A stretch of DNA of 26,647 nucleotides. It comes from Opitutales bacterium. Lineage in GTDB: Bacteria > Verrucomicrobiota > Verrucomicrobiia > Opitutales > Coraliomargaritaceae. Each line of letters opens with the position of its first letter. Position 1 is the stretch's first letter. The notes beneath the pieces were generated by a model, which worked only from the letters and a program-made list of their open reading frames with translations, searched no databases and was not told the origin of the DNA. Shown here piece by piece: positions 10,880 to 11,118 of this stretch. The position numbers and the translations under genes were made by a program. The stretch lies in contig JBMYNR010000023.1 in NCBI GenBank assembly GCA_049598495.1, positions 1-26,647 on the forward strand. Reading direction: 5' to 3'.

Positions 10880-10900
10880 TGGTAGGCCGTCGGGGACTCG
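10880..10900 (-). repeat. Duplicate of the tRNA-Lys 3' end, ending in CCA
   Basis: 10882-10900 is identical to 11045-11063 (19 bp). The minus strand reads CGAGTCCCCGACGGCCTA-CCA. Confidence 0.9.
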
Positions 10901-11003
10901 TTCCGAGCCTTGAGCTTGTCGAAAGGCGACAAGACCGGGTCCCGCTTAGCGGGAAACCGGACCACCGCAGGTGAAGAGTCCCCACGAAGCTGTCGAAGTG
11001 CAC

Positions 11004-11034
11004 AAAAAAGCCCACGAGCAGGAAGCTGGCGGGC
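11004..11034 (-). terminator. Intrinsic terminator of tRNA-Lys
   Basis: Minus strand GCCCGCCAGC-ttcct-GCTCGTGGGC-TTTTTT (imperfect stem). Confidence 0.7.
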
Positions 11035-11045
11035 GGGAAAGAAAG

Positions 11046-11118
11046 TAGGCCGTCGGGGACTCGAACCCCGAACCAATTGATTAAAAGTCAACTGCTCTAC
11101 CGATTGAGCTAACGACCC
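11046..11118 (-). tRNA. tRNA-Lys (anticodon TTT), CCA not encoded
   Basis: GGGTCGT-TAGCTCAATCGGTAGAGC-A-GTTGA-CT-TTT-AA-TCAAT-...CGGGG-TTCGAGT-CCCCG-ACGGCCT-A; a 73-nt cloverleaf. Confidence 0.97.

Follow-up and report, generated by a model that had tools for sequence, protein, structure and literature searches.

A tRNA-Lys(UUU) gene is followed here by a second copy of its own 3′ end, and only the second copy is continued by CCA. What duplicated the end of the gene, and how did CCA come to stand on the copy and not on the gene itself? The locus lies in the window, i.e. the whole stretch of 26,647 nucleotides analysed, which is contig C23 of a 1.75-Mb genome (G000). The runs containing it are of marine origin, and its shared-repeat relatives in GTDB are Opitutales or Coraliomargarita-like. 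The initial annotation, made from the letters alone, had proposed either the scar of a collapsed island or a nuclease-linked element that targets tRNA ends. We conclude that the locus consists of two elements, a tRNA-linked repeat (TLR) unit and a separate, CCA-anchored GIY-YIG cassette. TLRs are defined as units with 18–19 bp identical to the 3′ end of the upstream tRNA, present in one to five copies (PMC8144298).

The duplicated tRNA end and the unit that it closes

Features of the locus are listed in Table 1. What the initial annotation had read there was accurate: the 19-bp direct repeat is exact, with a spacing of 163, the full tRNA continues as CCTA-CTT and the duplicate as CCTA-CCA, and a terminator lies between the copies, seen as a hairpin and T6 at 11034-11004 and aligned with the terminators behind the orthologous tRNA of relatives. 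A strict promoter and terminator scan listed nothing at the locus, this hairpin with T6 included. The GIY-YIG region (Pfam PF01541, E 8.9e-7) lies outside the repeats, on the far side of the CCA, as had been described, and contains a frameshift near 10657 that was absent from that account. An ECF sigma factor gene on one side and a metallo-beta-lactamase-fold gene on the other are the neighbours of the tRNA gene. Coverage in the RNA run X18 was limited to tRNA-like sequence and one sigma-factor stretch. Rfam assigned the unit to no family, and a weak match to the fluoride riboswitch was discarded, as it is the reverse strand of the tRNA.

Table 1. Features of the tRNA-Lys locus, in window coordinates.
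Feature	Position	Strand	Basis or remark
tRNA-Lys(UUU), intact, CCA unencoded (...CCTA-CTT)	11045..11118	(-)	ARAGORN; Rfam RF00005, 71.4 bits
Upstream 19-bp repeat copy (tRNA positions 56-74)	11045..11063	(-)	exact repeat search
Former 3′ flank, from a tRNA-Lys allele lacking CCA; contains T6 and a terminator-like hairpin (11034-11010)	11004..11044	(-)	aligns with relatives' empty-site terminators
Fold-back: inverted copy of own T-arm 3′ strand (GGGGACTC), swapped dinucleotide, short hairpin ACC-TGC-GGT	10964..10983	(-)	
Double-hairpin core T-GGTCCGG...CCGGTCTTGTCG...CTCGGAA-C, in place of the T-loop TTC	10900..10964	(-)	also free-standing in Opitutales
Downstream 19-bp repeat copy, closes the 163-bp unit (10901-11063)	10882..10900	(-)	exact repeat search
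CCA	10880..10882	(-)	fused straight to the tRNA body in the sister strain; CA paired by the leader's first hairpin
Hairpin leader, start GCCTTCGC, end GGCTTGGC-ATG	10773..10879	(-)	73-82% identity to leaders behind relatives' other tRNA genes
Small single-domain GIY-YIG nuclease gene, frameshifted near 10657, 84 residues	10519..10772	(-)	PF01541
Unexplained tail between nuclease gene and conserved neighbour gene	10400..10518	(-)	

The unit contains no genes. It is made of 144 bp, in which the old flank with its terminator, the inverted T-arm copy and the 65-bp double-hairpin core follow each other, plus the 19-bp repeat. Its first 44 bases align with the terminators of relatives, and best with G021, a genome of another genus, at the flank of a tRNA-Lys fragment that lacks CCA.

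Similar arrangements recur in the genome. A copy of the gene's own 3′ end, of 16-24 bp, was found 125-400 bases downstream of 11 of its 33 tRNA genes, against a repeat of at least 16 bases within 500 bases at 1 of 1000 random genome positions. The filler between the two ends is of two kinds. Behind the tRNA genes for Pro, His, Met, Ser, Tyr and Glu it is an inverted T-arm with a GA swap (kind 1), and behind the window's Lys gene, those for Arg and Gln and two for Leu it is the double-hairpin core with its conserved CCGGTCTTGTCG centre (kind 2). The kind-1 unit behind tRNA-Tyr (C13:13852-14260, ∼390 bases) holds a core split by a further insertion, that is, nested elements.

Three properties place the window unit among TLRs: its 3′ end is identical over 19 bp to the 3′ end of the upstream tRNA; it lies immediately behind that tRNA, in one assembled copy for which junctions and depth suggest about 2-3; and it has the fold-back T-arm layout of the E. 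coli units, a property taken from their DNA and not from the literature. The RtT model RF00391 had no match in the window at E up to 5, and reached its gathering score in 0 of 10 Opitutales loci; the E. coli units score 47-138 bits. The duplication is, we conclude, the closing end of a TLR unit with a sequence not seen before in TLRs.

An assembly artefact, which had been named as an alternative, does not account for the duplication, as contigs from other runs span its junctions. The assembly probably shows too few copies of the unit rather than too many. In contigs of X3, X4 and X5 the end of one unit is joined to the start of the next, and in X2-X5 the depth of the unit is about 1.6-2.8 times that of the flanks (X2, 83.9 versus 31-34; X3, 111 versus 57-71; X4, 25.8 versus 9-11; X5, 19 versus 9), the run data being contigs and contig depth a rough measure, not a copy number. 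X2, X3 and X5 come from a single study, and X4 is in the same study as the possible source. It is likely that a tandem array of about 2-3 units was collapsed during assembly; a unit-to-unit junction is equally expected from an excised circle. Assembled arrays exist in relatives, at L183 (tRNA-Lys(UUU) of G057), L077, L276 and, on a complete chromosome, L289. Short-read assemblies under-count such repeat arrays.

The opposite state was found in X11, whose contig comes from a sister strain and shows 14 differences over 601 bases. In its contig the CCA copy continues straight into the tRNA body, over 9 letters past the repeat in this one run, and the unit is without cover. On this empty allele CCA is encoded, and the leader and nuclease gene follow it immediately; the frameshift is there as well. 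Natural populations hold the empty allele and, likely, the tandem array.

The core in tRNA genes and elsewhere

Construction of core-type units was examined by comparing 34 tRNA- or tmRNA-linked cores from GTDB, the family genomes and the window genome. Behind 29 of them, a repeat of at least 8 bases starts exactly at T-loop position 57. The piece before the core resembles the reverse complement of its own T-arm, with a score of 11.3 compared to 9.8 +/− 0.18 after permutation (reached in 0 of 5000), or, for the 17 distinct arms only, 11.1 compared to 9.4 (again 0 of 5000); these tests count related genomes as independent, and the p-value is for that reason overstated. The copy is never quite faithful: TC replaces the GA of the true complement in 25 of 29 units, and the true reverse complement occurs in 0 of 29. 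Many duplications extend 20-200 bases beyond the tRNA end, into the flank and terminator.

A scan of GTDB with a core pattern yielded at least 120 matches, 24 of which a regular expression discarded for missing the 5′ part of the core, a few of them probably genuine but cut off. Among the matches listed, 18 of the 96 accepted cores were tRNA-linked and 78 lay away from tRNAs, mostly between ordinary genes. The pattern is present in 56 of 101 family genomes (0 for the reversed-pattern control); a second pattern for the core was found in 15 of 301 phylum genomes, every one of them Opitutales.

The free copies point to a short target. T stands directly before the core in 87 of 92, with an unconstrained right flank. 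Out of 85 free cores tested, 16 were informative for the empty site, whose spacer was TC in 8, and no other 2-mer recurred; matching 7+7 bases left 69 of the 85 without a recoverable empty site, and at 6+6 bases chance matches dominate. Of 35 upstream copies, 31 have TTC in front of them. At L045 and L286, an empty repeat unit and a filled one are direct neighbours. At L193 (G081 C23), in an array of at least 11 tRNA genes, at least two cores sit cleanly in T-loops, without duplication. One core (L293:864-909, G018 C264) adds 14 codons, in frame, to a reverse-transcriptase ORF of the group II intron type that is at least 430 residues long, at a position where the usual motif has phenylalanine.

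Further cores were seen in intron-like DNA at L274, L279-L281 and L283-L285, and such DNA is a possible vehicle for spread of the core. Cores also lie antisense in tRNA-Ser D-loops, again at TTC (L032, L150/L199); there the tRNA 5′ end and upstream flank are duplicated, as in a TLR seen in mirror image. For a placement of free cores in hairpin loops there is weak support: with 16-base flanks, 15 of 92 were under the 5% level of the controls (p 0.006), and with 10 bases the effect was not significant.

From these data we infer that the core is a mobile mini-element which replaces the middle base of TTC, and that it persists in essential tRNA genes only where a duplication rescues them. No autonomous partner was apparent: the neighbouring ORFs scanned (118 of the 154 extracted, and 24 of 85 more) were housekeeping genes and reverse transcriptases, with no transposase among them.

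The CCA and the GIY-YIG cassette

The initial annotation had asked whether relatives encode CCA at the empty site. They do, in the X11 sister strain and in all 20 of the 20 tRNA-Lys(UUU) loci from the genus and family, none of which has the duplication. Its suggestion that the CCA copy is the displaced original end is favoured by this encoded CCA. The other suggestion, a CCA derived from mature tRNA, becomes unneeded, as the genome itself encodes CCA at the empty site and the first hairpin of the cassette pairs the CA of the CCA. Among the 29 units, CCA follows both copies in 19, the upstream copy only in 4, neither in 3 and the downstream copy only in 3, an N gap accounting for one of these. 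With two clear downstream-only cases out of 29, the CCA asymmetry is not a property of the element, and it is incidental at the window locus.

Alleles in other genomes bear on the order of events. The homologous unit of G021 has CTT behind both copies; loss of CCA by a 3-base deletion in the window strain was considered, and is weakened by this CCA-less flank in another genus. Behind tRNA-Leu(UAA), G011 reads CTT, unit, CCA and cassette, and the window genome and G018 have CCA and cassette only. In G049, tRNA-Lys is followed by CCA and three tandem cassettes, with no unit. Parsimony favours a later gain of the unit on a cassette-bearing allele, loss elsewhere being possible. The window genome has one gene of the PolyA_pol family, to which CCA-adding enzymes belong.

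Two side observations concern tRNA-Lys. On C11 of G021 (L155 and L013), a tRNA-Lys 3′ half with a unit lies 37 kb from an intact, CCA-encoding gene, an arrangement which suggests that an island displaced a CCA-less tRNA-Lys end. In the window genome, the AT-rich contig C70 (818 bp) carries a second tRNA-Lys(UUU) and an odd tRNA-Met, and may be foreign to the bin.

On the far side of the CCA begins the cassette. The first hairpin of its leader covaries, and an extension of this hairpin pairs the CA of CCA in 36 of the 39 cases with a partner found (45 examined), all of CCA being paired in only 2 cases. As it reaches into CCA in this way, the hairpin starts at the very end of the 19-bp repeat. 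At least 400 bases of upstream sequence were available for 60 of the nuclease's 80 metagenomic relatives. Forty-nine of these 60 cassettes lie behind a same-strand tRNA or tmRNA, of 15 kinds in total, and 47 are placed at an encoded CCA; the CCA-plus-leader motif is also found in 24 of 30 family loci. A 3′-end duplication accompanies 1 of the 49 tRNA-linked metagenomic cassettes, and a core 0 of the 60. The nuclease-linked element on tRNA ends envisaged by the first reading exists here, but the duplication is not its footprint.

In the PDB, UPF0213 proteins gave a match (E 1.7e-5) to the intact paralog of the nuclease on C52, and an SLX1 homolog a weak one (E 0.011); NCBIfam assigned no family to the GIY-YIG protein. 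The frameshift of the local gene is common to the filled and empty alleles, with an extra base at this point in one low-depth contig of X7. In addition, a deletion of 186 bp (10427-10612) takes the end of the gene in ∼1/3 of the depth in X2, X3 and X5, which indicates that the nuclease gene is decaying. In our reading, the cassette is selfish and independent of the TLR unit, with its anchor at CCA and, at this locus, a dead nuclease gene.

No DNA similar to the tail behind the nuclease gene was found in the genome or in 30 GIY-YIG loci. The tail contains a weak inverted tRNA-like stretch (10402-10476 (+) overall, with 10402-10426 resembling a tRNA 5′ part at 72%). Cassettes of leader and GIY-YIG gene also stand behind single tRNA genes at L210, L215, L224 and L212, the first three as 2-3 tandem copies. 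A different GIY-YIG gene lies behind tRNA-Asn at L153 (G000 C50:8000-8495) and has at its end a piece that resembles tRNA-Asn and contains an inserted hairpin.

Possible origin of the unit and known systems

We consider it probable that a 65-bp mobile hairpin inserted at the TTC of the T-loop, and that repair, presumably with template switching, left the inverted T-arm and the duplicate 3′ end. The layout, the own-arm match, the TTC target, the free cores, the unit junctions and the unit-less allele all support this origin; no movement of core or unit was observed. Once the hairpin had entered the T-loop, such repair would leave an inverted T-arm copy and a second 3′ end, one intact tRNA surviving, and copy number could then shift by recombination or slippage over the 19-bp repeat. 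A unit with a CCA-less tRNA-Lys flank would have recombined into an allele already carrying CCA and the cassette; this order is the most likely one, landing of the cassette on the last repeat copy being somewhat less so. The CCA copy would then be the displaced old end and the full tRNA would rely on the CCA-adding enzyme, while the terminator of the unit may shield the cassette from tRNA read-through. The core would be moved in trans by a candidate single-strand nick-and-paste enzyme, for which small GIY-YIG nucleases and Y1/RAYT transposases are about equally likely.

GIY-YIG genes were found in 34 of 56 core-positive and 9 of 45 core-negative family genomes (p 4.5e-5), and Y1 transposases in 52 of 56 and 16 of 45. 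Co-occurrence of core and GIY-YIG was dropped as evidence, as Y1 does equally well or better and genome size confounds both. A GIY-YIG match was found in the DNA around 0 of 120 cores among the matches listed and in 0 of 30 core loci, and none of the genome's four Y1 matches has a core. Core and GIY-YIG gene stand together in the window, L201, L205 and L216, and core and leader in L161, L060 and C35; as a few loci combine core and cassette, the two may share an enzyme. It would be a bold proposal, and we give it little credence, that in Opitutales a still active TTC-targeting element of 45-65 bp, making no target duplication, is mobilised in trans by small UPF0213/Slx1-like GIY-YIG nucleases encoded in the mobile CCA-anchored cassettes, TLRs being the survivors of T-loop attack. 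If true, this would define a nuclease-driven class of mobile DNA and explain where the E. coli repeats known since 1978 come from.

A related alternative joins both elements in a single system, in which the small GIY-YIG nuclease nicks tRNA-end hairpins and mobilises its own cassette and, in trans, the core and TLR. All five small GIY-YIG genes of the genome lie behind a tRNA or core, the co-occurrence and the four loci with both point the same way, and Ssn nucleases, which belong to the same superfamily, cleave single-stranded DNA at their cognate hairpins (PMC11893778). Y1, however, tracks the cores better, so that both enzymes follow non-streamlined genomes, a GIY-YIG match to this query is absent from 22 core-positive genomes, the metagenomic cassettes are devoid of cores, and the frameshift affects filled and empty alleles alike; we regard this single system as unlikely. 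Still less probable is that the host keeps the unit as a processed non-coding RNA or processing aid, comparable to RtT, its ends matching the tRNA by selection and not by templating. In its favour, RtT and RrA/B/F of E. coli are known as processed transcripts (PMC8144298), and the inverted arm of such a transcript could sequester the duplicate 3′ strand. Yet the unit lies mostly past the terminator and is missing from the sister strain and the 20 loci of relatives, the listed cores are mostly away from tRNAs, and the region does not stand out in RNA folding (z −1.86).

The collapsed integrase island of the initial annotation, with attL and attR joined by deletion, has very little left to recommend it. 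Repeats of 19 bp from a tRNA 3′ end do look like att cores, and the tRNA-Lys half of G021 indicates that this tRNA is probably used by islands, but the same ordered interval stands behind many tRNA genes, with repeats that start from one fixed T-loop position, the unit forms tandem arrays, the contig lacks an integrase and the repeat pair occurs in 0 of the 20 relatives. Just as improbable is a CCA copy made by reverse transcription of mature tRNA. That CCA is on the copy only, that cassettes are fused to CCA in 47 of 49 and that cores lie inside group II intron-like DNA would fit it; the genomic CCA of the empty site, the many units with CCA on both copies or on neither, and duplications running past the tRNA end into flank and terminator argue against it. 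Insertion of a mobile hairpin, followed by repair, is the reading that we retain.

Integrase islands at tRNA genes are bounded by attL and attR and duplicate the tRNA 3′ end. The window locus has in common with them a duplicated 3′ end that keeps the tRNA gene intact, and differs by its structured 144-bp interval, tandem amplification and the absence of an integrase from the contig, none of the genome's four PF00589 matches being located there. Short duplications of tRNA 3′ ends need not mark islands.

Like REP/REPIN sequences and MITEs, the core is a short, dispersed, mostly intergenic double hairpin with 6-bp inverted ends, which inserts in other repeats and even in frame in a gene (PMC3733652, PMC3184786). 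It has no GTAG/CGTC tag of the REP/RAYT kind, and no Y1 transposase in the 118 and 24 neighbouring ORFs scanned. Terminal inverted repeats of 6 bp (GTTCCG/CGGAAC) were found as in MITEs, with one mismatch in the GGTCC variant of the window. Target-site duplication was absent, as empty sites read TTC and one base is lost, and 20 further loci contained no autonomous IS partner. A GTAG-type palindromic repeat is present elsewhere in the window (18164-18195), and another copy lies beside a Y1 match on C57.

For the cassette, the nearest functional precedent is Ssn, single-domain GIY-YIG nucleases acting on single-stranded DNA that are associated with NTS/SRM hairpin repeats (PMC11893778). Shared are the single-domain GIY-YIG protein below 150 residues (frameshifted in the local copy), a gene of ∼85-95 residues beside hairpin repeats and, in relatives, leader-gene-leader arrays. 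The SRM motif itself had 0 occurrences in 10001-11300 and was found in 1 of 30 related loci. Unlike Ssn, the cassette is anchored on tRNA CCA ends, the word tRNA being absent from PMC11893778, and the closest solved relatives of its protein are UPF0213 proteins.

The closest relatives of the unit in layout are the E. coli TLRs, namely the 178-bp repeats of tyrT/tyrV, RtT/rttR (Rfam RF00391) and the units of the lys cluster, for which PMC8144298 cites Egan and Landy 1978 and Rudd 1999, and which it describes as without known origin or function since 1978. For rttR, raised coverage has been reported, and such signals at RNA genes were ascribed to RNA/DNA hybrids and not to circles (bioRxiv 10.1101/2024.07.17.603846). 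We found no paper on TLRs outside enterobacteria, on this core, or on CCA-anchored GIY-YIG cassettes, in a search that took in few subscription journals and no supplements. The window unit shares with the E. coli TLRs a gene-less sequence behind a tRNA, 18–19 bp of identity to the tRNA 3′ end and tandem copies. Inspection of the tyrV and lysQ units showed an inverted T-arm with a swapped dinucleotide before a hairpin core, and the fold-back layout of the tyrT/lysQ units is that of the window unit. The core itself is unrelated, with no match to RF00391, the break falls at T-loop positions 55/56 in E. coli and 57/58 here, and the Opitutales core, restricted to this order among the 301 phylum genomes, is also free at TTC. 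What is added here is the core as a free element directed to TTC, together with the alleles that lack the unit or carry it in an array. The sequence that fills a TLR can be seen on its own, with TTC as a target that can be defined and with sites both empty and filled, which is a clue to the origin of TLRs and makes that origin testable.
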